From NCBI GenBank assembly GCA_966128725.1, contig CBHYLN010000002.1, positions 23,711-87,710 on the forward strand: 64,000 nt of DNA. Reading direction: 5' to 3'. The stretch is from an uncultured bacterium. GTDB taxonomy: Bacteria > Bacteroidota > Ignavibacteria > OLB7. This document shows, piece after piece, positions 9,112 to 54,770 of the stretch (positions are counted from its first letter, which is position 1; each line of letters begins with the position of its first letter). Under the pieces are notes generated by a model. It was not told where the DNA came from. It did no database searches and saw nothing but the letters and a program-made list of their open reading frames with translations. Both the position numbers and the translations under genes were made by a program.

Positions 9112-9122
9112 GGAGCAGGAAA
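9091..9122. repeat. Perfect 16-nt tandem duplication (GGCATGGAGCAGGAAA x2) spanning the annotated phoD-like start codon
   Basis: Read directly from the sequence. On the coding strand it duplicates CTTTCCTGCTCCATGC, creating the MPFLLH N-terminal extension. Confidence 0.7.
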
Positions 9123-9632
9123 GAGAGAAGCACCTGAATGCTGCGTTTGTTCGCCAAAGCTACGGTGGCCAGACCTCGCGGCCAACGTTGCCCTGGGTAA
9201 CTGTTGTGAGCAACCGGTTGCGGCAACCCCCTCATGGTTCCGCAAGCCCGGTTACGACACCGCGGTTGCCAGGGGTGATGGCAACCGCGCCTGCAACAAT
9301 GGGTGGTGTCTTCTCTCTTTCCCGATCGCCCTCTCGATCGTGCTCCGTCGGACCTCCGCGATTCCCCTCCGCACCGATCTCGACATGCGCGTCATGCTGG
9401 ACACATGATGCGACGTTCACGTCGTTTGTGGGCGCAATCTGCACCGGCAACGTTACCGATGCGTTACCGATGGGTAACCTGAATGTTGTGTTTGCGGGCG
9501 CGTGGGTAATTGCGGATTGTGCCGCGGCATCCATGTGGCGAAGCCGGCCGCGTTCAGCATGCCGGCGGAATTATCTTGCGCGCCCCGGCGTTAGGGCCAG
9601 GGATTGCTGGCACGTTCACATGGGATCCCGTA

Positions 9633-13309: not shown

Positions 13310-13354
13310 AACAACAAACGGGCCGTGCCTATCATGTGAAAGGCACGGCCCGTT
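13310..13354. terminator. Bidirectional intrinsic-terminator-like hairpin between convergent genes
   Basis: Perfect 13-bp stem AACGGGCCGTGCC / GGCACGGCCCGTT with a 12-nt loop. On the minus strand it is followed by UUGUUGUU. Confidence 0.55.
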
Positions 13355-14404: not shown

Positions 14405-15109
14405 ATGAAACGCATTCTTTTGTCGATCGTGGCTGTTGCCGCGGTCGCATCCTTGATGCTTGTTGGCAACCCTGGTGTTGCCACGGCGCAGTTTGGATTT
14501 GGAGCGGGTCTTGTGGCTGCCGGCGACAACGTGTCGCAGGCGCAGGGTGAGCTTGCCGATCTTTTTGCCAAGGAAAACATTTCCGCGGGCGATATCTCGG
14601 GTGATATCGGGCTGTATCTCTCCGGACGCTTCCGCCTTGGCATGGGGCCTGTTCGCCTGTTGGGCGATGCCTCGTACCTGTTCTTCAAGGCCAAGGAGGT
14701 GACGCTTACCGAGGCCTCGGCAAATCCGGGCGATACCTCGGCATCCGGCACATTCGACGTTGGCACATCGATGTATCCCATCGCGGCCGGTGTGGCCTTC
14801 GCGCTGCCGATTCCGGTGGTGAAGCCATATGTGGGCGCGCAGCTCAGCTATACCCTTATCAACCGCACATTCACGCGTGTAAGCGGCGGGGCCGATTGGC
14901 AGACGCTGGGCGTGGAAAACAAGAGCGCCGGCGACCCGGAGCTTGGCATGACGGTGAATGCCGGCGCCGAGTTCAATCTGGCCTTCGCAACGCTTGATGT
15001 GGGTGCGCGTTATAACCTGACCAATCTGTTCTCTCAGGAAAACGGTGAGGCCCAGATGCGCTACCTGCAGGTAGGGGCGTCGCTGTTCTTTGGCTCTTCC
15101 GGAAACTGA
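14405..15109 (+). CDS. Outer-membrane beta-barrel protein (OmpW/porin-like, hypothetical)
   Basis: Signal peptide MKRILLSIVAVAAVASLMLVGNPGVATAQ, amphipathic beta-strands and a C-terminal ...LFFGSSGN. Confidence 0.6.
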   Translation: MKRILLSIVAVAAVASLMLVGNPGVATAQFGFGAGLVAAGDNVSQAQGELADLFAKENISAGDISGDIGLYLSGRFRLGMGPVRLLGDASYLFFKAKEVTLTEASANPGDTSASGTFDVGTSMYPIAAGVAFALPIPVVKPYVGAQLSYTLINRTFTRVSGGADWQTLGVENKSAGDPELGMTVNAGAEFNLAFATLDVGARYNLTNLFSQENGEAQMRYLQVGASLFFGSSGN

Positions 15110-15125: not shown

Positions 15126-16058
15126 ATGACGATAATCGACCTTACCTGGCGCCTTCCAGGTCCATTGGCAACATATTTCCTGGCGCGCCAGGGGATGACG
15201 GTGATCAAATACGAGGATGCCTCGCACCGCGATCCATTTCTGAAGTGGGCCTGGGACCCCGCCTTTGCCGAGGTGTACCATGCCTTCCAGAGCGTGAAGC
15301 AGTTGCGGCTGATCGATTTCGGCTCGGCCGCCGATGTGGCGGCCCTGCACGAGCAGATACGCAACGCCGATGCGGTGGTGATGAGTTTCCCGCCGCGCGT
15401 GGAGGAAAAGCTGGGGCTTACCGAACAGGCGATCGCCTCGGGGTTCGCCGGCGTTTCCTTCACGCGCCTTGGCTTCCGTCCCGGCGACGATCACTCGGCG
15501 CACGATCTCAACTCGATGGCGCAAAGCCATCTGTTGAAGATGCATATCCTGGACCGCACCGACGATATCATCGCGCCGCCGTTTCTGCCGGTGACCGGTA
15601 TGTTCTTCTCGTATCACATCGGCATCACCGTGCTGGCCACGGTATTGCAGCAGCAGGCGCGTGCCGCACACGGCGTTACCGAGCCTATTCAGAACTGGTG
15701 TTATCTGCAGGACGCGGTGGACCAGGCGCAGCAGGCGTATTATCCGGCGTCGATCCAGGAGCGCACGCCCGCCACGTTTCTGCACAACGGGCGTTTCCCA
15801 TGCTACAACATCTACCGTACGGCCGACGGCGGGTATCTGGCGGTGGCCGCGGTGGAGCCCAAGTTCTGGGCGCGGTTCCGCGAGTTGGCCGGCCTGGCGC
15901 AGCTCTCCGATGATGACGGCCTTGTTGACGGCGAACGAGCGGTGCAGGTGAAGGCGGCCATCCTTGCCGCAGTGCGCTCGCGGACTACCGACGAGTGGCG
16001 TGCCATCTTCGCCGGGCACGATGCGTGCGTGGATCTGGTGGGGCCGTTTGTCGGGTAG
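15126..16058 (+). CDS. CoA-transferase family III (CaiB/BaiF-like), unusually short
   Basis: N-terminal IIDLTWRLPGPLATYFLARQGMTVIKYE matches the family signature. 310 aa versus ~400 typical; the C-terminal small domain appears to be missing. Confidence 0.6.
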   Translation: MTIIDLTWRLPGPLATYFLARQGMTVIKYEDASHRDPFLKWAWDPAFAEVYHAFQSVKQLRLIDFGSAADVAALHEQIRNADAVVMSFPPRVEEKLGLTEQAIASGFAGVSFTRLGFRPGDDHSAHDLNSMAQSHLLKMHILDRTDDIIAPPFLPVTGMFFSYHIGITVLATVLQQQARAAHGVTEPIQNWCYLQDAVDQAQQAYYPASIQERTPATFLHNGRFPCYNIYRTADGGYLAVAAVEPKFWARFRELAGLAQLSDDDGLVDGERAVQVKAAILAAVRSRTTDEWRAIFAGHDACVDLVGPFVG

Positions 16059-16159
16059 GGCAGAGAGGGGTGTGAGGGGCGTTGCGCCGGTGTTGAATCC
16101 GTTGAAGTACTGTACAGCCCGGCATTGGCCATGTTGCCGATGCCGATCCTCGAAAATCA

Positions 16160-16195
16160 AACGGCCCGTTCATGCATATGCACGAACGGGCCGTT
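16160..16195. terminator. Bidirectional intrinsic-terminator-like hairpin
   Basis: Perfect 12-bp stem AACGGCCCGTTC / GAACGGGCCGTT with a 12-nt loop. The minus-strand side is followed by UUGAUUUUCG. It lies between convergent genes. Confidence 0.55.
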
Positions 16196-16223
16196 GCTGC
16201 TTTGCGGGCAAGTGCCCGATCGG

Positions 16224-16982
16224 TTAGCGCTTTACCAGACCGTCGAGCGAAACGATGTATTCCTTGGCCGCGTCGTCATACCGTACGGTGTACTTCGTGG
16301 CGTAGTAGACCCCTGTCTTCGGGTACATGGCAGGCACCTTCATGTCCACGGTGGAGTTCGGGCGGGTAAGCATGTACTCGCGTGTGATCATCGGCTCGGT
16401 GAAGATCATCTTGCCGTCATAGTAGCCGTAGATCATCGTCCGCGTGAACGAGCCATTCGGCTGGAACTCGGAGGATGTCGGGTCGGCCCAATGCACGCCC
16501 ATGCGCGGCACCACGTTGACGGTGGAGATATATCCGGCCGGCACATGGTTCGTATCGGGCGCATTCATTGCCTTCACCGTATCGGCCGGGGTAATGCCAT
16601 CGCGCTCGGCGCTGGTGATCTGATAGAAGTGGAAGTCGAAGTGCGGGAACGTGTAGATATGATCCGGCTCGTGCCCGTGCGAATTCCAGTCCAGGCCCAT
16701 GTGATCGTATCCGGTGGCCGCGATCTGTGCCGGGAAGGTCAACGTGTACTCCGCGTCGCTGGCCGGGAGGCTGCCCATGGCCGCTTCGTTGATCGCAACG
16801 CCAACCGAGGTCGGGTTGCCGTCCTTGTCGAGCGTTACCATAGTGCGGGCCGAACCGGAACCCACGGTCACAGGAGTGCCGTAGAATGTGCCGCTCTTGT
16901 CGGTGGATACGGGATCGGTTGTGCAACCGGCTGCCAATACCAATGCCGACATCGATGCCAGAATGATTGCTGTGCGTTTCAT
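16224..16982 (-). CDS. Lipoprotein, hypothetical
   Basis: ATG at 16982 gives MKRTAIILASMSALVLAAGCTT (lipobox LAAGC). The track ORF extends further upstream, but the signal peptide supports the internal start. Confidence 0.6.
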   Translation of the reverse strand: MKRTAIILASMSALVLAAGCTTDPVSTDKSGTFYGTPVTVGSGSARTMVTLDKDGNPTSVGVAINEAAMGSLPASDAEYTLTFPAQIAATGYDHMGLDWNSHGHEPDHIYTFPHFDFHFYQITSAERDGITPADTVKAMNAPDTNHVPAGYISTVNVVPRMGVHWADPTSSEFQPNGSFTRTMIYGYYDGKMIFTEPMITREYMLTRPNSTVDMKVPAMYPKTGVYYATKYTVRYDDAAKEYIVSLDGLVKR

Positions 16983-17505
16983 TACCACAAATGCGTTTGT
17001 TATGTGAAAGGGTTGGACATGACTCACAAACCTTCTAATCGACCATGATGGCAATGGTGCCACACGATCGAGTGCGCGCGCATCGGCGGAACAGCCTGAT
17101 GTGTTAGGGTTTTGCATTGCTTTGCGTGGATGCCATGGGCGGGGCATCGCATCGCGAAGTTCGGAGGGTGCCTACGCCAACGATGCGCGCGGGTTGCACG
17201 TTCGGTCCGCCAAAAGGCGTAACAGACCGTTTGCAGGGATTGCCGTAGTGCAATGGACGGGTGAGGATGTTGGGCCGCGAATATACAGGTCAACAGCACC
17301 TCACGCAAATTCCTCACGTGGTTTGATGACCAGCACGCGATTGTGCCCCAACGCGTGTTCCGATCCTTCGGCGTTTGAATCGCAATACGAGTAATCGCGA
17401 TGGATGGATTTCGCCCGCTCCACTCCCTTGCCTGCCGGTTGAGGTTGTTTCCAGTGTTGATGTGTGTTCGCCTGCCCAGGCGACATGGTACCCTTCAGGG
17501 GCAGC

Positions 17506-17534
17506 TTGACAGCCCCAATCTCATCGGGTATATT
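17506..17534 (+). promoter_or_regulatory. Near-consensus sigma70-type promoter (TTGACA-17 nt-TATATT), ~390 nt upstream of the mutase ATG
   Basis: TTGACA at 17506-17511, 17-nt spacer, TATATT at 17529-17534, reading rightwards. Applicability to this organism's housekeeping sigma is inference. Confidence 0.45.
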
Positions 17535-17925
17535 CCGGCCAGTTCTCACTTCCTCTCAGCATGGTTGCTTCCAACATGTTTGTACTGAAACGCGGCGGTT
17601 GAGTTTGATCAGGGCATGGTGTGCCTGTCCCTGGATCAGCAGGAGAAACGTTGTGCCGATAACGGTGATGGGGCTTGCCCGTGTTGCATGCGGCAAGCGT
17701 CGGTGGTTGGCCAAGTAAGCGTATCGAACCCGGACTCAGCGAAACCGCTCGCCCTCCAGACGAGCGGTTTCGCCCGTTATGGGCGTGGTCCGTCGGTTCC
17801 AGGATCGGCGCCGATGCCGATGTTTTGGTGTGTTCCGTTTACATGCCTTGATTTCTCCATCGGATTGCCTTGCGTATCTTCACCATCAGTGATACAACCG
17901 AACAGCAACCAGTAGAACGGACCAC

Positions 17926-19647
<1,722 letters not shown>

Positions 19648-19887
19648 GTTCCGCGCCGGGCTTTGTTGTACGGTGTTCCTTCGATCGTGTTGAATGCGCC
19701 GGGCCGCACGGGCCTCGGTGATTCAGGTTGCACGACGATGCTGCGCGCATGGCGCAACGTTTGTTGATATGATTGCTTCGTGGTGCCGGGGCTTGGCTCC
19801 GGCACTCACGCACCCGCAGCATGTTCCCCTTCCCGCGTGGCGACCGCCGCGAACGTTTCCGCGTATTACTCAGGATCAACCAGCGCA

Positions 19888-20757
19888 ATGACTGAACAAC
19901 CAGGACAGGAACATCTCCATACGGCATCGGCCGGGGGGTATACGCCCGAGGGGGCGCATACGGATTTCACAACCGAGATGAGCTACGGCTCGTATCTCGC
20001 GTTGGAGCAACTGCTGAGCGCGCAGCATCCGGTATCCAGCGAGCACAACGAGATGTTGTTCATCGTGCAGCATCAGACCACCGAGTTATGGATGAAGCTT
20101 GTGCTGCACGAGCTGCGTGCCGCCAACCAGCATGTATGCAACGATGACTTGCAGCCTGCGTTCAAGATGCTGGCGCGGGTTAGCCGCATCATGCTGCAGT
20201 TGATTCAGGCCTGGGATGTGCTTGCCACGCTTACACCAAGCGAGTACCTGCTGTTCCGCGACAAACTGGGCCACTCCTCCGGATTTCAATCGTATCAGTA
20301 TCGCGCCATCGAGTTCATGCTGGGCAACAAGAATCGGGGGATGATGGCCCCGCATCGCCACATGGCCGAGACGCACGCCGAGCTGCAGAACGTGCTGGAG
20401 AGCCCCAGCCTGTACGACGAGGCGTTGCGCCTGCTTGCGCGTCGCGGCATCGAGGTGGACCCCGCCGTGTTGGAACGCGATTGGAGCCAGCCCTACGTGG
20501 CCAACGAATCGGTGGAGCGTGCCTGGGCAACGGTGTATCGCGACACCGCCCACCATTGGGATCTGTACGAGCTTGCCGAGAAGCTGGTGGACCTTGAGGA
20601 TTACTTCCGTCAGTGGCGATTCCGCCACGTGACCACCGTTGAACGCGTGATCGGGTTCCGGCGCGGCACGGGCGGAACGGCCGGTGTGGAGTACCTGCGG
20701 AAGATGCTGGCCGTGCGACTGTTCCCCGAGCTCTGGGATCTGCGCACCGCGCTGTAA
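19888..20757 (+). CDS. kynA: Tryptophan 2,3-dioxygenase
   Basis: ATG at 19888 gives MTEQPGQE... [18 protein letters not shown]...[14 protein letters not shown]...FRHV, matching the TDO family. Confidence 0.85.
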
Positions 20758-25957: not shown

Positions 25958-25991
25958 CCGGCCGGTTGGCATGTCGTTGCCAACCGGCCGG
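25958..25991. terminator. Bidirectional hairpin (14-bp perfect palindrome stem) between convergent genes
   Basis: CCGGCCGGTTGGCA-TGTCGT-TGCCAACCGGCCGG. Confidence 0.5.
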
Positions 25992-38112: not shown

Positions 38113-38320
38113 GTGGGGTAAGGCCTGTCTGGGCATTGGGCGAGTGGCGAATAGTATATCGAGATGCGATTCCGGGCCAAAATCGTTGGTGGGCCGGGCG
38201 TGAAAACGTCGCGAATAGTTGTATATTTAAGTACAAATTATGAGTTCAATTGTATAAGATCGGGTCGTTGCCACTGCGGCTTCGCAACCACCCAGTCAGC
38301 GCCCAGACCCCGGTGCTCGA

Positions 38321-38590
38321 TTGAATCTCCACAAGTCAACCGGATTCATTCAATTCATTTCCGATACCGGTATGAAGGTGGTCATTGCTATCTACGACCG
38401 ATTGGGTCGCCGTGTGAAAACGCTCGCCGAAGGCGAACGCAAACCCGGCAAACACCACATGGAGTGGGACGGCACCGCCGACGACGGCCGCCGAGTTCTG
38501 CCAGGAAGTTATTTCTTTCGAGTCGACATCCTTGGTGTTGGCCCCATCGCACATTTCAAGATCGAACTCGAGCCCGAACATGCACCCTAA
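38321..38590 (+). pseudogene. Orphan T9SS C-terminal sorting domain (CTD-only ORF), probably the remnant of a larger secreted protein
   Basis: 89 aa (TTG start in the track; internal ATG gives MKVVIAIYDRLGRRVKTLAEGERKPGKHHMEWDGTADDGRRVLPGSYFFRV...). It matches only the CTD consensus. The in-frame upstream sequence hits a stop within 63 nt inside an AT-rich block. Confidence 0.5.
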
Positions 38591-38698
38591 CCATGATCAT
38601 ACACGCCCGCCGCCGCGCAACCGGCGGCGGGCGCCGTTACCAGTCTGTTGGATTACATTCGCGTCAGCAGGCTGTTGCTCAACAGCCCGATACAGGCT

Positions 38699-39346
38699 TC
38701 ACCGTACCTGCGCCCTGATATACCAGTAAGCTTCGATCACGCTCGCGAACTGCGCGCCGGGGTATTCCACGCGACCATAGTTGCCGACGTTCTCCGGCGA
38801 GGGCCATGGGTCGCGTACCACAACCGAGGCAATTACCGGCCCGGACCGTGTTTGCAGGAAGCTTGCGGCGGTAATCACCACTGCGTGACCACTGCCCGGC
38901 CCGGAGCGATATCCTGCAAGAACAGGATGCCCCTGGCTGAGCTCACGCAACAATACTGATGGCGTTGGCGCACCCCAGTTCATCGAGGATGCCACAACGT
39001 ACGGGTTGCCGGCATTGTCCACATTCCAGTTGTTCAGATTGGCGGTGATCGCCGGGAAGCTCCCGGCCCAGTTCGGCAGGCGGCCATATGGATCCGAGCC
39101 ATAGGTGCGCGCCACGATCTGCTCCTGAGATATGTCGACGCCATAGTAGTTCAGCACCATCTGGATGGATGCCGCCCAGCACCAGTTGGAGTTGCGCTGC
39201 GAGGCGGCGTAGAAGTTCATTTTCGACGACTGGATACCAACGTACTGTGCCTGGGGCTGGTACGAGTAGTACTGTGCCTGCGCCGCCGGCGAAGCAATGC
39301 CGGCCAGTGCAAGGAGAATCCAGATCAGATATCGCTTCGGGCTCAT
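38699..39346 (-). CDS. Secreted papain-like cysteine peptidase, C39-like domain
   Basis: ATG at 39346 gives MSPKRYLIWILLALAGIASPAAQAQ (signal peptide). NWCWAASIQMVLNYYG (catalytic Cys) and GHAVVI (His). Confidence 0.6.
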   Translation of the reverse strand: MSPKRYLIWILLALAGIASPAAQAQYYSYQPQAQYVGIQSSKMNFYAASQRNSNWCWAASIQMVLNYYGVDISQEQIVARTYGSDPYGRLPNWAGSFPAITANLNNWNVDNAGNPYVVASSMNWGAPTPSVLLRELSQGHPVLAGYRSGPGSGHAVVITAASFLQTRSGPVIASVVVRDPWPSPENVGNYGRVEYPGAQFASVIEAYWYIRAQVR

Positions 39347-43783: not shown

Positions 43784-45948
43784 GCGATGGCCCCACGTTT
43801 TGGGGGTGGCGTTGGGAATCCGTGCTGAGTCGTCTCATTCTGCTTTGCGCGCTTGTAGTCTCACCCCTGGCTCAGTCGCTGGCGCAGCCTTTGTCTCCGG
43901 CACCCGACATCGATCGGGTGCCGGATAGTTCGTTGATAGGCCCTGCTGTTCGCCTCGGTATCGTGCCTATGCTGGGAATGGTGCAACAGCTTGCCTCGTT
44001 CGACCGCTGTACCGTTGGCGCATCGTGTGGCGCATACCAAGCCACTTCCCGCGGCGAGCTAGGCATCGCCGTTCGTCTGGAAATGCCGTTTCGTATCCAC
44101 CCCAACATTCTTGCAACTGCCTCGCTTGCCTACGCGCGTAATGCGCTGGAATTGCTTACCCCGATCGATTCAGCGCTGGAAGGGCGGCGCCCGGATAACA
44201 CGGCAACCTGGATTACCAAGCAAACCAGCCTGCGGGCTTCGATGCCGTCGTTTTCAGTAGGGGTTGGCCTGGCTTTTGAACCCGTCCGTGGGTTGCGGTT
44301 TGGGCTTAAGCAGAACGTGAGCATTGTCAACACGGCGCGCCCAACCGTGGAGCAAATGCTTCTAGGTCCGGAGGAGGCTGTGTTCGCGGCCACGGGAACC
44401 GATCGAGCGCCGTTGGAGAATGCGAACGAGCCGGTGTTCAGGGCAGTGGTGCCGCGTGGTGCGCTGTGGGCTGGTTGGCAATTGCCGATCGGTTCGCGCT
44501 TCTCGCTGCAGCCCTCCGCCGGCATGGAGTTTACCGAATCGTCGATTGCCTCGAATGTTTCATGGTATGAAGTCGGGTTCGGCGCAGGTCTTGGGCTGGT
44601 CATCGATCTTGGCCCAAAGCCTGTGGACGCGGTGCCAGTGCCGGTTATAGCCGAGATTGGGCGCCAGGCTTCGGACACCGTCCGTCCGATCCAGCCGGCC
44701 AGGGATACCGTGGTGCCGGTTGTACCACCGAAGTACATCCTGCGTGCCAGCGTTGTTGTCAAGGGTATCGACGCGAAAGGGAACGAATACGATGATCCGG
44801 TGATCGAAATTGAGGAATCGCCCTGGAGCGAATCGGTGCCGGTGTTGCCGTTCATCTTTTTCGACAGCGCCGACGCGACAATTCCATCGCGGTACGTCCA
44901 ACTCGACGAGTTCTCGCCCCCGGAGCGCTTTCATGTGGATTCGCTGGCGGCAATCTCGCCTTTGAACATTCATTGGCAGATGTTGAACGTTGTTGGCGAG
45001 CAGTTGCGGGCCAACCCACGGCAACGACTGACGATTGCCGGCACAACCGCGGGCGATGAGCAGGGGGGCGATGCAACCCTTGGTGCCAGGCGGGCGCAGG
45101 CGGTGCAGCGTTACCTGATCGACCGGTGGCGGATCGATCCAAAACGTATAACCGTGACTGTGCTTGCACATCCTTCGTCTCCATCAAATGAATTGACCCG
45201 CGAAGGCCGCGCCGAAAACCGACGTGTGGAGCTGCGATTTGATGTTGGTGAACTGAGCCGCCCAATCCTGATTCGCCGGTTGGCCACCGTTGCGTCGCCG
45301 CCAGCGGTACAGTTCTATCAGAACATCGAGGCGGACACGGACATCGTTTCATCGTATGTGGTGGTTGAGCAGGGAGGCAAGGAACTGCTGCGCTTCGTTG
45401 GCAGCAACGACACCGGGCCGAAACCGCAGCAGAAGTTCTGGTCACTTGGCGACATGCGCGTCAACCGCGACCTGACGCCCATTCGTTATCGCTCGGTTAT
45501 TCGCGATGCGGTTGGGCAGGAGGTGGTGACCGAGGGTTCGTTTCGTGTGCTGGAACGCGCAACCCGTCGCCCAGAAGAACGCAAGGCGGAGCTGATCGAG
45601 TTCAACATTGTTGGCTTCGAGTTCAATTCCGCGGAACTGCGTCCGCAGCATTTTGTGCAACTGGAGGAGGTCGCCAAGGTTCTGACCTCGGGTGCGGATG
45701 TGTCGATTACCGGCTTTACCGATCGTACGGGTGATCCGGGTGGCAATGTGCAGTTGTCGCAGGCGCGCGCGCGCGCGGTGCTCGGGGCCTTGCGAACGAT
45801 GCGCGAACGCGCTGGTGAATCGATGCCGACCAAGCTCTCGGTGGTGGGATTGGGAAGCGATCAGCAGGCATATGATAACGATTTGCCGGAGGGGCGCCTG
45901 CTATCGCGCATGGTTCGTGTAACCGTGGCCCGTCAGTCGCGACGATAG
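43780..45948 (+). CDS. OmpA-family protein with two C-terminal OmpA-like peptidoglycan-binding domains and a large N-terminal (beta-barrel-like) region
   Basis: Two OmpA-like blocks (TIAGTTAGDEQGGDATLGARRAQAVQRYLI, and ITGFTDRTGDPGGNVQLSQARARAV ...R). Co-transcribed with the sigma/anti-sigma genes. Confidence 0.7.
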   Translation: MSDGPTFWGWRWESVLSRLILLCALVVSPLAQSLAQPLSPAPDIDRVPDSSLIGPAVRLGIVPMLGMVQQLASFDRCTVGASCGAYQATSRGELGIAVRLEMPFRIHPNILATASLAYARNALELLTPIDSALEGRRPDNTATWITKQTSLRASMPSFSVGVGLAFEPVRGLRFGLKQNVSIVNTARPTVEQMLLGPEEAVFAATGTDRAPLENANEPVFRAVVPRGALWAGWQLPIGSRFSLQPSAGMEFTESSIASNVSWYEVGFGAGLGLVIDLGPKPVDAVPVPVIAEIGRQASDTVRPIQPARDTVVPVVPPKYILRASVVVKGIDAKGNEYDDPVIEIEESPWSESVPVLPFIFFDSADATIPSRYVQLDEFSPPERFHVDSLAAISPLNIHWQMLNVVGEQLRANPRQRLTIAGTTAGDEQGGDATLGARRAQAVQRYLIDRWRIDPKRITVTVLAHPSSPSNELTREGRAENRRVELRFDVGELSRPILIRRLATVASPPAVQFYQNIEADTDIVSSYVVVEQGGKELLRFVGSNDTGPKPQQKFWSLGDMRVNRDLTPIRYRSVIRDAVGQEVVTEGSFRVLERATRRPEERKAELIEFNIVGFEFNSAELRPQHFVQLEEVAKVLTSGADVSITGFTDRTGDPGGNVQLSQARARAVLGALRTMRERAGESMPTKLSVVGLGSDQQAYDNDLPEGRLLSRMVRVTVARQSRR

Positions 45949-53118: not shown

Positions 53119-53402
53119 AGATCACCATCGGTGCACGACTTCGCAACCGTTGCCGCCCGTTGAGGCCAACATCGTGGTGTTGCCATACCATGCCATTGTT
53201 GCCTGCATTGGTCTGTGCCCGGCTCGATATCCGTTTCGTGTTCATCAATGTTGCTCATTGATGTTGGCTGCAAGGTACCTTTTGCACCTCGTGCTCGATT
53301 GGGTATCTTAGGCCCCCTTACCATTCCGGCCGCGATGATATCGTCGGTCGGGGTCCGCTCCGAGTTCGGAGCGCAACTCCACGCAAATTCTAGAAGCAGA
53401 CG

Positions 53403-54119: not shown

Positions 54120-54770
54120 GTGCCTGCGATGAAACACGATGCCGTTGTGCGCCTGCTTATGACACCCGTTACCAACAATCCCGATATCGTACTTCCGTGG
54201 GAGACGCTGGCGCGCGAAACCTTCGCCGATTGTCGCATCTTCTCAATCGAGAAGGTCCGGCGGCGCAGCAGCGCCAGCGGTCGCGAGGGCGATTTCTTCA
54301 CGATCGTCAGCAACGACTGGGTAAACGTTGTGGCGATTACGCCGGGGAACGAGTTGGTGCTGATCCGTCAGTATCGCCAGGGCTCCAACGAGATCACCCT
54401 TGAGATCCCTGGCGGGATCGTCGACGAGGGAGAGGATCCGATTGATGCCGCGCGACGCGAGCTGTTGGAGGAAACCGGGTACTCGTGCGCCAGCGCCATG
54501 CTGATTGGGCGCGTGCGACCGAACCCGGCGATCATGAACAATTGGGCATACACGGTACTGGCCACCGGGCTCTCCGAGCCGAGTGGTCAGGAGCTCGACG
54601 AACACGAGGAGATCGATGTATGCACGCTTCCGGTGGAACACGTTGAATCCATGCTGCGCGAGGGAGTGATAACGCACTCCCTCGTTGTGAACGCACTTCT
54701 CTGGTATAAACTGAACGGAATCTCGAGTGGCCAGGCCTTGGGAGCCACGACAGGAACGATTGATGGGTAA
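54120..54770 (+). CDS. NUDIX hydrolase
   Basis: Nudix box [23 protein letters not shown]. Confidence 0.8.

Follow-up and report, generated by a model that had tools for sequence, protein, structure and literature searches.

What is the 943-nt stretch of noncoding DNA that separates a methylmalonyl-CoA-mutase-family gene from its divergent neighbor? It lies at positions 16983–17925 of the window, by which we mean the whole 64-kb stretch of DNA that was analyzed. A promoter-like site close to consensus and a perfect hairpin stand ahead of the mutase gene, an arrangement that the earlier note read as either a regulatory leader of the mutase mRNA or an independent small RNA. We propose, with confidence slightly better than even, that the gap is a lineage-specific composite spacer without a sensor RNA for the mutase, and that the mutase is transcribed from a promoter of its own. 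It is the conserved promoter retained beside the mutase gene that makes us read the gap as an insertion-derived spacer and not as a riboswitch. The genes around the gap are arranged as follows.

14405–15109: OMP-like hypothetical gene, first in the local gene order, before the CoA-transferase gene
15126–16058, plus strand: CoA-transferase family III gene (CoA_transf_3, Pfam PF02515)
16224–16982, minus strand: DUF5602/TTHB210-like lipoprotein gene (Pfam PF18197), with a signal peptide and lipobox LAAGC
16983–17925: noncoding divergent spacer of 943 nt between the lipoprotein gene (minus) and the mutase gene (plus)
17926–19647, plus strand: gene for a methylmalonyl-CoA-mutase-family large subunit of 573 aa (MM_CoA_mutase, Pfam PF01642, 741 bits)

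The mutase polypeptide has no B12-binding domain in its 573 aa, and its homologues in the protein search carry the names Kapabacteria or Kapaibacterium. The DNA comes from a MAG of the Kapabacteria type, within the Bacteroidota/Chlorobi group. The codon usage of the lipoprotein gene is native-like. An independent assembly from a different sample (L081) covers the entire gap at 99.8% identity, so the gap is no mis-assembly. Its GC content is the same as that of other spacers, in a window that is more than 82% coding (noncoding share 17.5%).

The earlier description of a noncoding divergent region of about 940 nt held at the exact boundaries, with codon and Pfam tests negative throughout. Codon-position GC periodicity was absent from the gap, and all of its open reading frames had negative codon-usage log-likelihoods, between −0.02 and −0.26 per codon (vs +0.27 to +0.58 for real genes). 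Each frame contains 6–13 stops, and a six-frame scan found no Pfam domain in the gap at E ≤ 1. The 99-aa frame at 17616–17915, which had been dismissed as a coding sequence on first reading, indeed scored −0.075 with a GC3 of 0.60. The least improbable frame, of 82 aa on the minus strand (17304–17549), matched two repetitive proteins in a HMMER search of 1.84 billion proteins; their scores are sums over repeats, and we judged both matches spurious. By codon bias, open frame and homology, the gap is neither a coding gene nor a pseudogene. It also contains no tRNA or tmRNA remnants, no tandem repeats and no sequence copied elsewhere in the window. A replication origin was considered and rejected, as the gap has no DnaA box (≤ 1 mismatch) and the GC skew runs monotonically through the window, with no switch.

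Relatives were sought among 80 species-level genomes retrieved via the mutase, through exact-protein look-ups, and with a metagenome scan and a protein search for the lipoprotein. The mutase orthologues are 87–90% identical at the protein level and have spacers of 85–494 nt. In loci L085–87 and L090, the same OMP-like and CoA-transferase genes are followed directly by the mutase, across spacers of 381 and 331 nt, and the CoA-transferase of the window shares 78–80% amino acid identity with its counterparts immediately before the mutase in L085 and L090. Synteny downstream of the mutase is also kept (SIMPL, UbiA, a hypothetical gene and SDR). L088 carries another cassette at the equivalent position, and the mutase spacers of L083, L084 and L088 measure 85–131 nt. 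The lipoprotein gene was missing from this position in all relatives examined; its closest homologue in the protein search is at 56% identity, against 90% for relatives of the mutase, and the metagenome scan returned lipoprotein relatives of 46% identity or less. Judged from gene order, the CoA-transferase gene is the ancestral upstream neighbor of the mutase. The same comparison showed that the lipoprotein gene, together with ~730–780 nt of extra noncoding DNA, is a lineage-specific insertion in the CoA-transferase/mutase spacer. Neither a target duplication nor a mobile-element signature was found around the insertion, and its boundaries are unmappable because the spacers of the group diverge beyond recognition. 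The only copies of the gap sequence that were found are more than 99% identical (L081 and L082), with none at a useful evolutionary distance. Searches of the gap by blastn and tblastx against all fetched loci, plasmids and phages gave no match besides one promoter block in relatives, and tblastx against the fetched loci gave nothing significant.

That block (17838–17884, ~45 nt) is the only portion of the gap that aligns with relatives. It holds the first of three promoter-like sites.

17852–17882, plus strand: predicted mutase promoter of the Bacteroidetes/Chlorobi type, with −33 element TTTC (17852–17855), a 19-nt spacer and −7 element TATCTTCA (17875–17882)
17506–17534, plus strand: distal promoter-like site TTGACA-17-TATATT, 11/12 matches, which also fits TTG-N20-TA[ATC][ATC][AT]T
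17280–17308, minus strand: promoter-like site TTG-N20-TATATT facing the lipoprotein gene, whose ATG is 298 nt away

The −7 box of the proximal site ends 43 nt before the mutase ATG. The motif GTATCTT is common to all seven Kapabacteria sequences in the alignment and is missing in the more distant L001; from the end of the TATCTT box to the ATG, the distance is 39–56 nt across relatives, mostly 39–43. The block is kept in L083, whose entire spacer is 85 nt, and the spacers of L085 and L090 have only their final 69 nt in common. In a Chlorobiaceae MAG (L003), the mutase is preceded by the canonical TTTG-N19-TATCTTTG. In Chlorobaculum tepidum, dRNA-seq gave the promoter pattern TTG-N17-23-TA[ATC][ATC][AT]T (bioRxiv 10.1101/172254), and the TATCTT box matches its −7 consensus, TA[ATC][ATC][AT]T. 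Within the window, TTG-N17-23-TA..T sites are enriched in noncoding DNA, with 11 of 24 falling in the 17.5% that is noncoding. With −33 and −7 elements ~19 nt apart and conserved near the gene, the proximal block is, on its sequence, a Bacteroidetes/Chlorobi-type promoter. Transcription of the mutase would then start near 17888 and leave a 5′UTR of ~38 nt.

The distal site is present as the earlier note had it, with 11 of 12 consensus positions matched and a 17-nt spacer. It is the sole site of at least 11/12 in the 64 kb, where shuffles average 0.16 per window, and only 8 of 2000 shuffled gap sequences contained one as good. At 10/12 or better, three sites stand against 2.3 expected, indicating no enrichment of sigma-70-consensus sites in this genome beyond the distal site; at the lenient cut-off of 9/12, one was found vs 0.9 expected. 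Its hexamers, a spacer within 16–18 nt and a rarity beyond chance make it a predicted sigma-70-family promoter. The site was found in no relative, and no collection searched held a sequence homologous to the region around it. The minus-strand site, which follows the published C. tepidum pattern (bioRxiv 10.1101/172254), is weak, with about one such match expected by chance. An ECF-type motif (GGAAC-N15-19-GTT) occurs once in the gap, at 17088–17111 on the plus strand, and was set aside: the window total of 12 vs 7.5 expected is not above chance.

Several inverted repeats bear on where transcripts might end.

17739–17773, both strands: perfect 13-bp GC-rich hairpin, arms 17739–17751 and 17761–17773, loop of 9 nt
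17804–17834, plus strand: short hairpin ATCGGCGCCGATGCCGAT followed by GTTTTGGTGTGTT, z = −2.1, just upstream of the mutase promoter
17673–17698, plus strand: marginal hairpin GCTTGCC/GGCAAGC, −17.1 kcal/mol, z = −2.66
17606–17638, plus strand: imperfect hairpin TGATCAGGG/CCCTGGATCA, −14.6 kcal/mol, z = −0.54, with 54 of 200 shuffles as good
17075–17191: perfect 11-bp inverted repeat CGCGCGCATCG/CGATGCGCGCG enclosing 95 nt
16160–16195: perfect 12-bp hairpin where the CoA-transferase and lipoprotein genes converge, with minus-strand tail GTTTGATTTTCG

The stem first reported as 11 bp at 17741–17771 is perfect, as stated, and its length needs correcting to 13 bp at 17739–17773. It folds with −24.4 kcal/mol as plus-strand RNA and −30.8 as minus-strand RNA, z being −6.3 in either case, and none of 200 shuffles did as well. 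The accompanying statement that the region contains multiple stable hairpins was too strong: it applies to 17739–17773, while 17606–17638 is at chance level and 17673–17698 is marginal. A sliding structure z-score gave no signal besides the 13-bp hairpin, the putative 385-nt leader as a whole folding at z = −1.9 and the minus strand of 16983–17273 at z = −2.8. The repeat at 17075–17191 overlaps a minus-strand Rfam match to Bp2_287, a Burkholderia sRNA, which at 22 bits is far below the gathering score of 70.

The 13-bp hairpin has the stable GC-rich stem-loop of an intrinsic terminator and lacks the 3′ U-tract (tail CCGUUAUGGG; by strand, plus CCGTTATGGGCG and minus TGAGTCCGGGTT); a terminator scan did not pick it. 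Perfect-stem hairpins of at least 10 bp number eight in the window vs 0.9 in shuffles. Three of the seven others (13317, 16160 and 25958) lie where the ends of two genes converge and have no strong U-tracts; the one at 16160–16195 is a probable bidirectional terminator. The hairpin at 38604 is also at a convergent end if the frame at 38164–38718, for which Pfam gave no match, is discounted as a gene. A hairpin of similar build at 9261–9289 lies in the divergent gap upstream of a PhoD gene, so not all such hairpins are gene-end terminators. By analogy, the 13-bp hairpin resembles the U-tract-poor terminator class of this genome. The site at 17804–17834 is weakly intrinsic-terminator-like; three of its type were found vs 1.7 expected, which is not significant alone.

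Based on these data, we propose a plausible history and working order for the locus. The ancestral state would have been the CoA-transferase gene, a spacer of ~330–380 nt containing the terminator of that upstream gene and the mutase promoter, and then the mutase. The lipoprotein gene, in opposite orientation, and its ~730–780 nt of noncoding DNA would have entered this spacer. The mutase would still be transcribed from TTTC-N19-TATCTTCA, and transcription arriving from the left may be blocked before that promoter by the 17739–17773 hairpin, which the weaker, U-rich-tailed hairpin at 17804–17834 follows. We infer that the 13-bp hairpin originated either as the orphaned CoA-transferase terminator or as the terminator of some transcript arising inside the insert. 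The distal site, if active, would produce a noncoding RNA of ~235–290 nt ending before the mutase promoter, and not a leader of the mutase mRNA, while 16983 to ~17500 would serve as promoter and 5′UTR of the lipoprotein gene. Counting against this explanation are the missing U-tract of the 13-bp hairpin, the similar hairpin in the divergent gap before the PhoD gene, and the fact that it gives no positive reason why so compact a genome should keep ~750 nt of additional noncoding DNA.

The retained length is one of the points that would be better served if the distal promoter and the 13-bp hairpin delimited a lineage-specific gene for a trans-acting small RNA of ~235 nt, a possibility that we regard as doubtful. 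An independent small RNA ending at 17739–17773, the second proposal of the earlier note, would be the best fit to the anatomy of the gap, in which a rare promoter, 200 nt, a terminator-class hairpin and the mutase promoter follow one another. The 11/12 promoter match is unique and is followed, 200 nt on, by the strongest hairpin of the region, no coding potential exists between them, and the same class of hairpin marks 3′ ends elsewhere in the window. However, no homologue appeared in any collection searched and no Rfam family matched; the interval 17541–17785 folds no better than shuffles (z = −1.5); the predicted end has no U-tract, the transcript itself being a prediction; and sigma-70-consensus sites are otherwise not enriched.

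A remnant of a protein-coding gene, with the hairpin as the terminator of that gene or of a neighbor, is an improbable source of the extra DNA. At ~750 nt the DNA is the size of a gene, the 13-bp hairpin is terminator-like, and the site takes up differing gene cassettes in relatives. Against this stand the coding tests described above: every frame has a negative codon score and is broken by stops, neither the Pfam scan nor tblastx returned a significant match, and the 82-aa minus-strand frame matches only two repetitive proteins judged to be junk. In addition, the GC content does not set the gap apart from other spacers.

We consider it very unlikely that the mutase is transcribed from ~17541 through a 385-nt riboswitch or attenuator leader with the 17739–17773 hairpin as its terminator. 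The order of promoter, ~200 nt, strong hairpin and gene is the classic one for a riboswitch, and the MFE model closes 17655–17784 as one domain via the helix GCCGATAACGG/CCGTTATGGGC. However, cmscan of 16000–19000 and 17480–17930 at E ≤ 10 with lax filters found no plus-strand family in the leader, only a 9.7-bit fragment on the 17739–17773 hairpin. The cobalamin riboswitches (RF00174, RF01482 and RF01689) gave no match at that threshold and none in the orthologous spacers, and no other Rfam family matched in any orthologue spacer. At the gathering threshold, the window and six relatives yielded only a tRNA (tRNA-Val), located elsewhere. Duplexes of the leader with the 5′ and 3′ arms of the hairpin reach −18.4 and −15.8 kcal/mol and are equalled by 20% and 91% of shuffles, respectively, indicating that mutually exclusive terminator/antiterminator pairing is not above chance. 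The sole leader ORF has 13 codons and no special features. Moreover, the conserved promoter of the mutase itself is downstream of the hairpin, and the orthologues in L083, L084 and L088 manage without any such leader in their short spacers. What B12 riboswitches ordinarily regulate is the supply of B12 or isozymes that do without it, and not mutases that depend on it. The earlier note had named non-conservation in relatives as evidence against its leader, and the leader is not conserved, the orthologue spacers sharing only the promoter block. These results thus lend no support to a riboswitch or attenuator leader of the mutase. Because the mutase proteins of the relatives are no more than 87–90% identical, non-conservation excludes a widespread riboswitch but not a young lineage-specific RNA. 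A new lineage-restricted cis-regulatory RNA of this kind, an orphan riboswitch or protein-dependent attenuator driven by the distal promoter, would end in the 13-bp hairpin and add a second, conditional layer over the proximal promoter; we give it barely any credence.

Finally, the perfect symmetry of the 13-bp inverted repeat and its setting in a divergent regulatory region, with the mutase promoter ~80 nt downstream, would suit an operator or recombination site acting as DNA, a role made highly unlikely by GC-rich 13-bp arms and a 9-bp spacer like those of the gene-end terminator hairpins of the window and unlike typical operators, by the absence of a second copy from the window and relatives, and by the lack of an adjacent regulator or recombinase gene. 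A search of viral contigs with the hairpin pattern gave no match.

With the insertion-derived spacer as the preferred reading, the gap as a whole is ordinary. Its value is practical and negative: a near-consensus promoter and a perfect hairpin precede a B12-enzyme gene, yet there is no riboswitch here, and the actual promoter of the mutase is recognizable through comparison with relatives. The block at 17852–17882 illustrates, for an uncultured class, a conserved promoter of the Bacteroidetes/Chlorobi type, and in Kapabacteria the CoA-transferase/mutase spacer has taken up insertions repeatedly. Should the distal unit be transcribed, it would be the first candidate small RNA gene for Kapabacteria, though a lineage-specific one, a status we would grant it only tentatively and with little confidence.

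Compared with known systems, the gap resembles cobalamin riboswitches in context only, with ~200 nt of potential RNA before a hairpin and upstream of a B12-related gene; unlike them, it has no match at E ≤ 10, and the orthologous spacers likewise have none. The distal unit is reminiscent of the intergenic sRNA loci predicted by SIPHT-type searches in its near-consensus promoter, ~200 nt of noncoding sequence, strong hairpin and long intergenic region, but it is not conserved and has no structure signal beyond the terminal hairpin. Like intrinsic (Rho-independent) terminators, among them the bidirectional type of convergent gene ends, the 17739–17773 hairpin has a long perfect GC-rich stem and a short loop, a build also seen in the window at 13317, 16160, 25958 and 38604; it differs in having no U-tract and in its position, a divergent spacer that contains no annotated gene end. 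Although its −33 element is TTTC and its −7 element is without the terminal TG, the block at 17852–17882 has the −33/−7 geometry and the TAnnTT core of the Bacteroidetes/Chlorobi sigma-A promoters (TTTG/TAnnTTTG).

The 943-nt gap between the divergent lipoprotein and mutase genes is noncoding by every test that we ran. Its main features and flanking genes are as follows.

16224-16982, minus strand: TTHB210-like/DUF5602 lipoprotein gene, left of the gap
16983-17925: divergent gap, 943 nt, noncoding
17075-17085 / 17181-17191: perfect 11-bp inverted repeat around 95 nt
17308-17280, minus strand: promoter-like site of the Chlorobaculum tepidum pattern, directed at the lipoprotein gene
17506-17534, plus strand: TTGACA-17-TATATT (distal site), from the promoter scan
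17739-17751 and 17761-17773: perfect 13-bp stem, GCGAAACCGCTCG / CGAGCGGTTTCGC, loop of 9
17804-17834: weak hairpin with a U-rich tail, upstream of the conserved mutase promoter
17926-19647, plus strand: gene for a methylmalonyl-CoA-mutase-family large subunit (573 aa), right of the gap

Third-position GC bias, 0.75-0.90 in the flanking genes, is lost within the gap, where each of the six frames contains 6-13 stops and six-frame translation gave no Pfam match at E <= 1. Under a codon model trained on 16 window genes (14 with Pfam matches; lipoprotein gene excluded), training genes scored +0.27 to +0.58 per codon and the lipoprotein gene, whose product has a typical lipoprotein signal peptide at its N-terminus (MKRTAIILASMSALVLAAGC), scored +0.375; all gap ORFs of at least 25 aa were negative (-0.02 to -0.26). 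These results bear out the earlier note's view that the gap holds no credible coding sequence. The least unlikely candidate, a minus-strand ORF of 82 aa, had only two matches among 1.84 billion representatives, both repetitive proteins and judged spurious, their scores being summed repeats. A contig from another sample (L081) covers both flanking genes and the entire gap at 99.8% identity, with two SNPs in the gap, which rules out an assembly artefact. Also rejected were foreign composition (GC 0.559 vs 0.51-0.61 in other spacers), a replication origin (no DnaA boxes, no skew switch), tRNA or tmRNA remnants, tandem repeats, and an ECF-type promoter (one GGAAC-N16-GTT site, with a window count not above chance).

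Mutase homologues reach 90% identity, and the closest ones carry the names Candidatus Kapaibacterium, Kapabacteria, Chlorobi or Bacteroidetes; the best species-level genomes reached via the mutase are Chlorobiota and Ignavibacteria MAGs. We compared the mutase locus of Kapabacteria relatives (87-90% protein identity), in which the spacer upstream of the mutase has the following lengths.

L083: 85 nt
L088: 123 nt
L084: 131 nt
L090: 331 nt
L085-87: 381 nt
L089: 494 nt

The lipoprotein gene is absent from this locus in all compared relatives (L083-L090). In L085-87 and L090, a CoA-transferase family III gene lies directly upstream of the mutase on the same strand, with a hypothetical OMP-like gene before it; both have orthologues in the window, at 15126-16058 (78-80% identical) and 14405-15109 (56% identical), respectively. 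In the window, the 1867 nt between CoA-transferase and mutase comprise the lipoprotein gene and noncoding stretches of 165 and 943 nt. From this synteny, together with a best lipoprotein homologue of only 56% identity among 5.8 billion proteins, it follows that the lipoprotein gene and ~730-780 nt of extra noncoding DNA were added in this lineage to a spacer that was ancestrally ~330-380 nt long. Neither repeats nor a target duplication marks an insertion at the gap, and comparisons of the gap with plasmids, phages and viral contigs gave no match. At the same spot, L088 (2151-3877, cf. window 16059-17925) has another two-gene cassette, an AAA_15/AAA_21 ATPase and DUF3226, which looks defence-like; insertions or rearrangements recur at this CoA-transferase-to-mutase position. 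The upstream neighbour of the mutase in other relatives is a DUF3179 protein, a LuxR-type regulator or a PDDEXK_3 protein.

Downstream synteny (SIMPL, UbiA, a hypothetical gene, SDR) is retained. In L089 and on the P0007 contig, the mutase is followed by SIMPL and UbiA; in the window, a tryptophan 2,3-dioxygenase gene (19780-20757), absent from that position in the relatives, comes between mutase and SIMPL/UbiA. Given the insert upstream, lineage-specific additions thus lie on either side of the mutase. The mutase polypeptide contains the substrate-binding domain PF01642 only, and the gene for the B12-binding subunit is not adjacent, which points to a split-type enzyme with its partner gene elsewhere. 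At its N-terminus the mutase has an NG-rich extension, encoded by 2.8 copies of the 12-nt unit GCCAATGGCCAC in tandem (17947-17979); differences in length between orthologues (566-579 aa) may map to this N-terminal region.

The lipoprotein gene promoter must lie in the left portion of the gap, between 16983 and ~17500. Overlapping the inverted repeat there, the Rfam model Bp2_287, a Burkholderia sRNA, aligns over its full length on the minus strand (17078-17232) but stays below threshold (22 bits vs a gathering score of 70; E = 0.038 in a 3-kb search), and the minus-strand fold of 16983-17273 has z = -2.8. These signals may reflect structure in the 5'UTR of the lipoprotein mRNA, or they may be due to chance.

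The hairpin at 17739-17773 has z = -6.3, the same on both strands, and a sliding-window scan found no further outstanding local structure. The earlier note had called it a perfect 11-bp stem; perfect it is, but with 13 bp. Two other hairpins singled out there proved unremarkable (z = -0.5 and -2.7), as did the folds of the putative 385-nt mutase leader (z = -1.9) and of segment 17541-17785 (z = -1.5). Perfect hairpins with stems of at least 10 bp number eight in the 64-kb window vs 0.9 in shuffles, and those with at least 12 bp six vs 0. The other seven, GC-rich with stems of 10-14 bp, are listed below; three of them lie exactly at convergent gene ends.

9261-9289: 11-bp stem, in a second divergent gap
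13317-13354: convergent gene ends; arm AACGGGCCGT
16160-16195: convergent gene ends; same arm
25958-25991: convergent gene ends
38604-38633: a fourth at convergent ends only if ORF 38164-38718, for which Pfam gave no match, is discounted as a gene
43896-43925
54659-54684

As a class, these hairpins look like the terminators of the host genome; the U-tracts of those at gene ends are mostly poor. The build of 17739-17773 matches that of the gene-end hairpins, so a terminator-class element is its best reading; it may be a CoA-transferase gene terminator that was orphaned, or may mark where a transcript from within the insert ends. Hairpins also occur in the corresponding spacers of relatives, such as an 11-bp stem 224 nt before the ATG in L090. 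The second divergent gap (9112-9509) separates PhoD-like phosphatase (minus) and amine-oxidase (plus) genes; either it holds a small unannotated unit, or hairpins of the 9261-9289 type are not always terminators.

The housekeeping promoter of the Chlorobi/Bacteroidetes-type host group differs from that of E. coli: dRNA-seq of C. tepidum revealed promoters resembling TTG-N17-23-TANNTTTG, in which the -7 box is TA[ATC][ATC][AT]T (bioRxiv 10.1101/172254). Sites fitting this pattern are enriched in the noncoding 17.5% of the window (11 of 24), and the distal site also matches it, as TTG-N20-TATATT, and hence is not dismissible on taxonomic grounds. It is present as the earlier note described. At a lenient threshold, the scan returns one site per 2 kb, which is the shuffle expectation; an 11/12 match is rare, this being the sole one in 64 kb (shuffles give 0.16), and when the gap was shuffled 2000 times, such a site arose in only 8 cases. 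Between this site and the 13-bp hairpin lie 200 nt without coding potential. This anatomy would suit a transcription unit for a noncoding RNA, ~235 nt long if it ends at the 13-bp hairpin and as much as ~290 nt if it ends at the second. An independent small RNA is possible on these sequence features. That it is functional we consider unlikely: no homologue turned up in the collections searched, the terminal hairpin is the only structural signal, and a similar hairpin lies upstream of the PhoD gene. The riboswitch or attenuator leader proposed for the mutase is not supported, because one that mattered should show in orthologous spacers or Rfam, and we found no Rfam leader family, no counterpart in those spacers (only the block at 17838-17884, next to the gene, is common to relatives), no antiterminator-type pairing of leader segments with hairpin arms better than in shuffled sequence, and a single, featureless leader ORF of 13 codons. 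The conserved promoter comes after both the 13-bp and the weak hairpin, so that a transcript begun at 17541 would more likely stop short of this promoter than feed the mutase. The observation that started this analysis is accurate; the best-supported picture is one in which the spacer would have been generated by insertion and the mutase would keep its own conserved promoter, shielded by a terminator-class hairpin. Architecture of this kind is ordinary for a genome, with a twist that is specific to the lineage.

By blastn against all loci, the gap gave one 31-nt match (17851-17881), and aligning the last 200 nt before the mutase ATG revealed a single conserved block, 17838-17884 (...ACATGCCTTGATTTCTCCATCGGATTGCCTTGCGTATCTTCACC). 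Its elements are a -33 TTTC, a 19-nt spacer and a -7 TATCTTCA; GTATCTT is common to all seven Kapabacteria sequences and missing from the more distant L001. The L085 and L090 spacers, despite the same gene order, have only their last 69 nt in common. Elsewhere in the window, a metallo-beta-lactamase-fold gene has TTGCACCTCGTGCTCGATTGGGTATCTT (53282-53309) 94 nt ahead of it; this sequence and the mutase promoter carry the window's only two exact copies of TTGnGTATCTT, which hints at a local -7 consensus. Mutase transcription would start near 17888, leaving a 5'UTR of ~38 nt. The assignment of 17852-17882 as the native mutase promoter is well supported by the conserved block, by the distance from the TATCTT box end to the ATG (39-43 nt in most relatives, 56 nt in L089), by retention of this box in L083 though its entire divergent spacer is 85 nt, and by likeness to more distant mutase loci: Bacteroidota MAG L005 has TTTG ~20 nt before TATCTTAA, and Chlorobiaceae MAG L003 has a textbook TTTG-N19-TATCTTTG, where the window has TTTC at -33.
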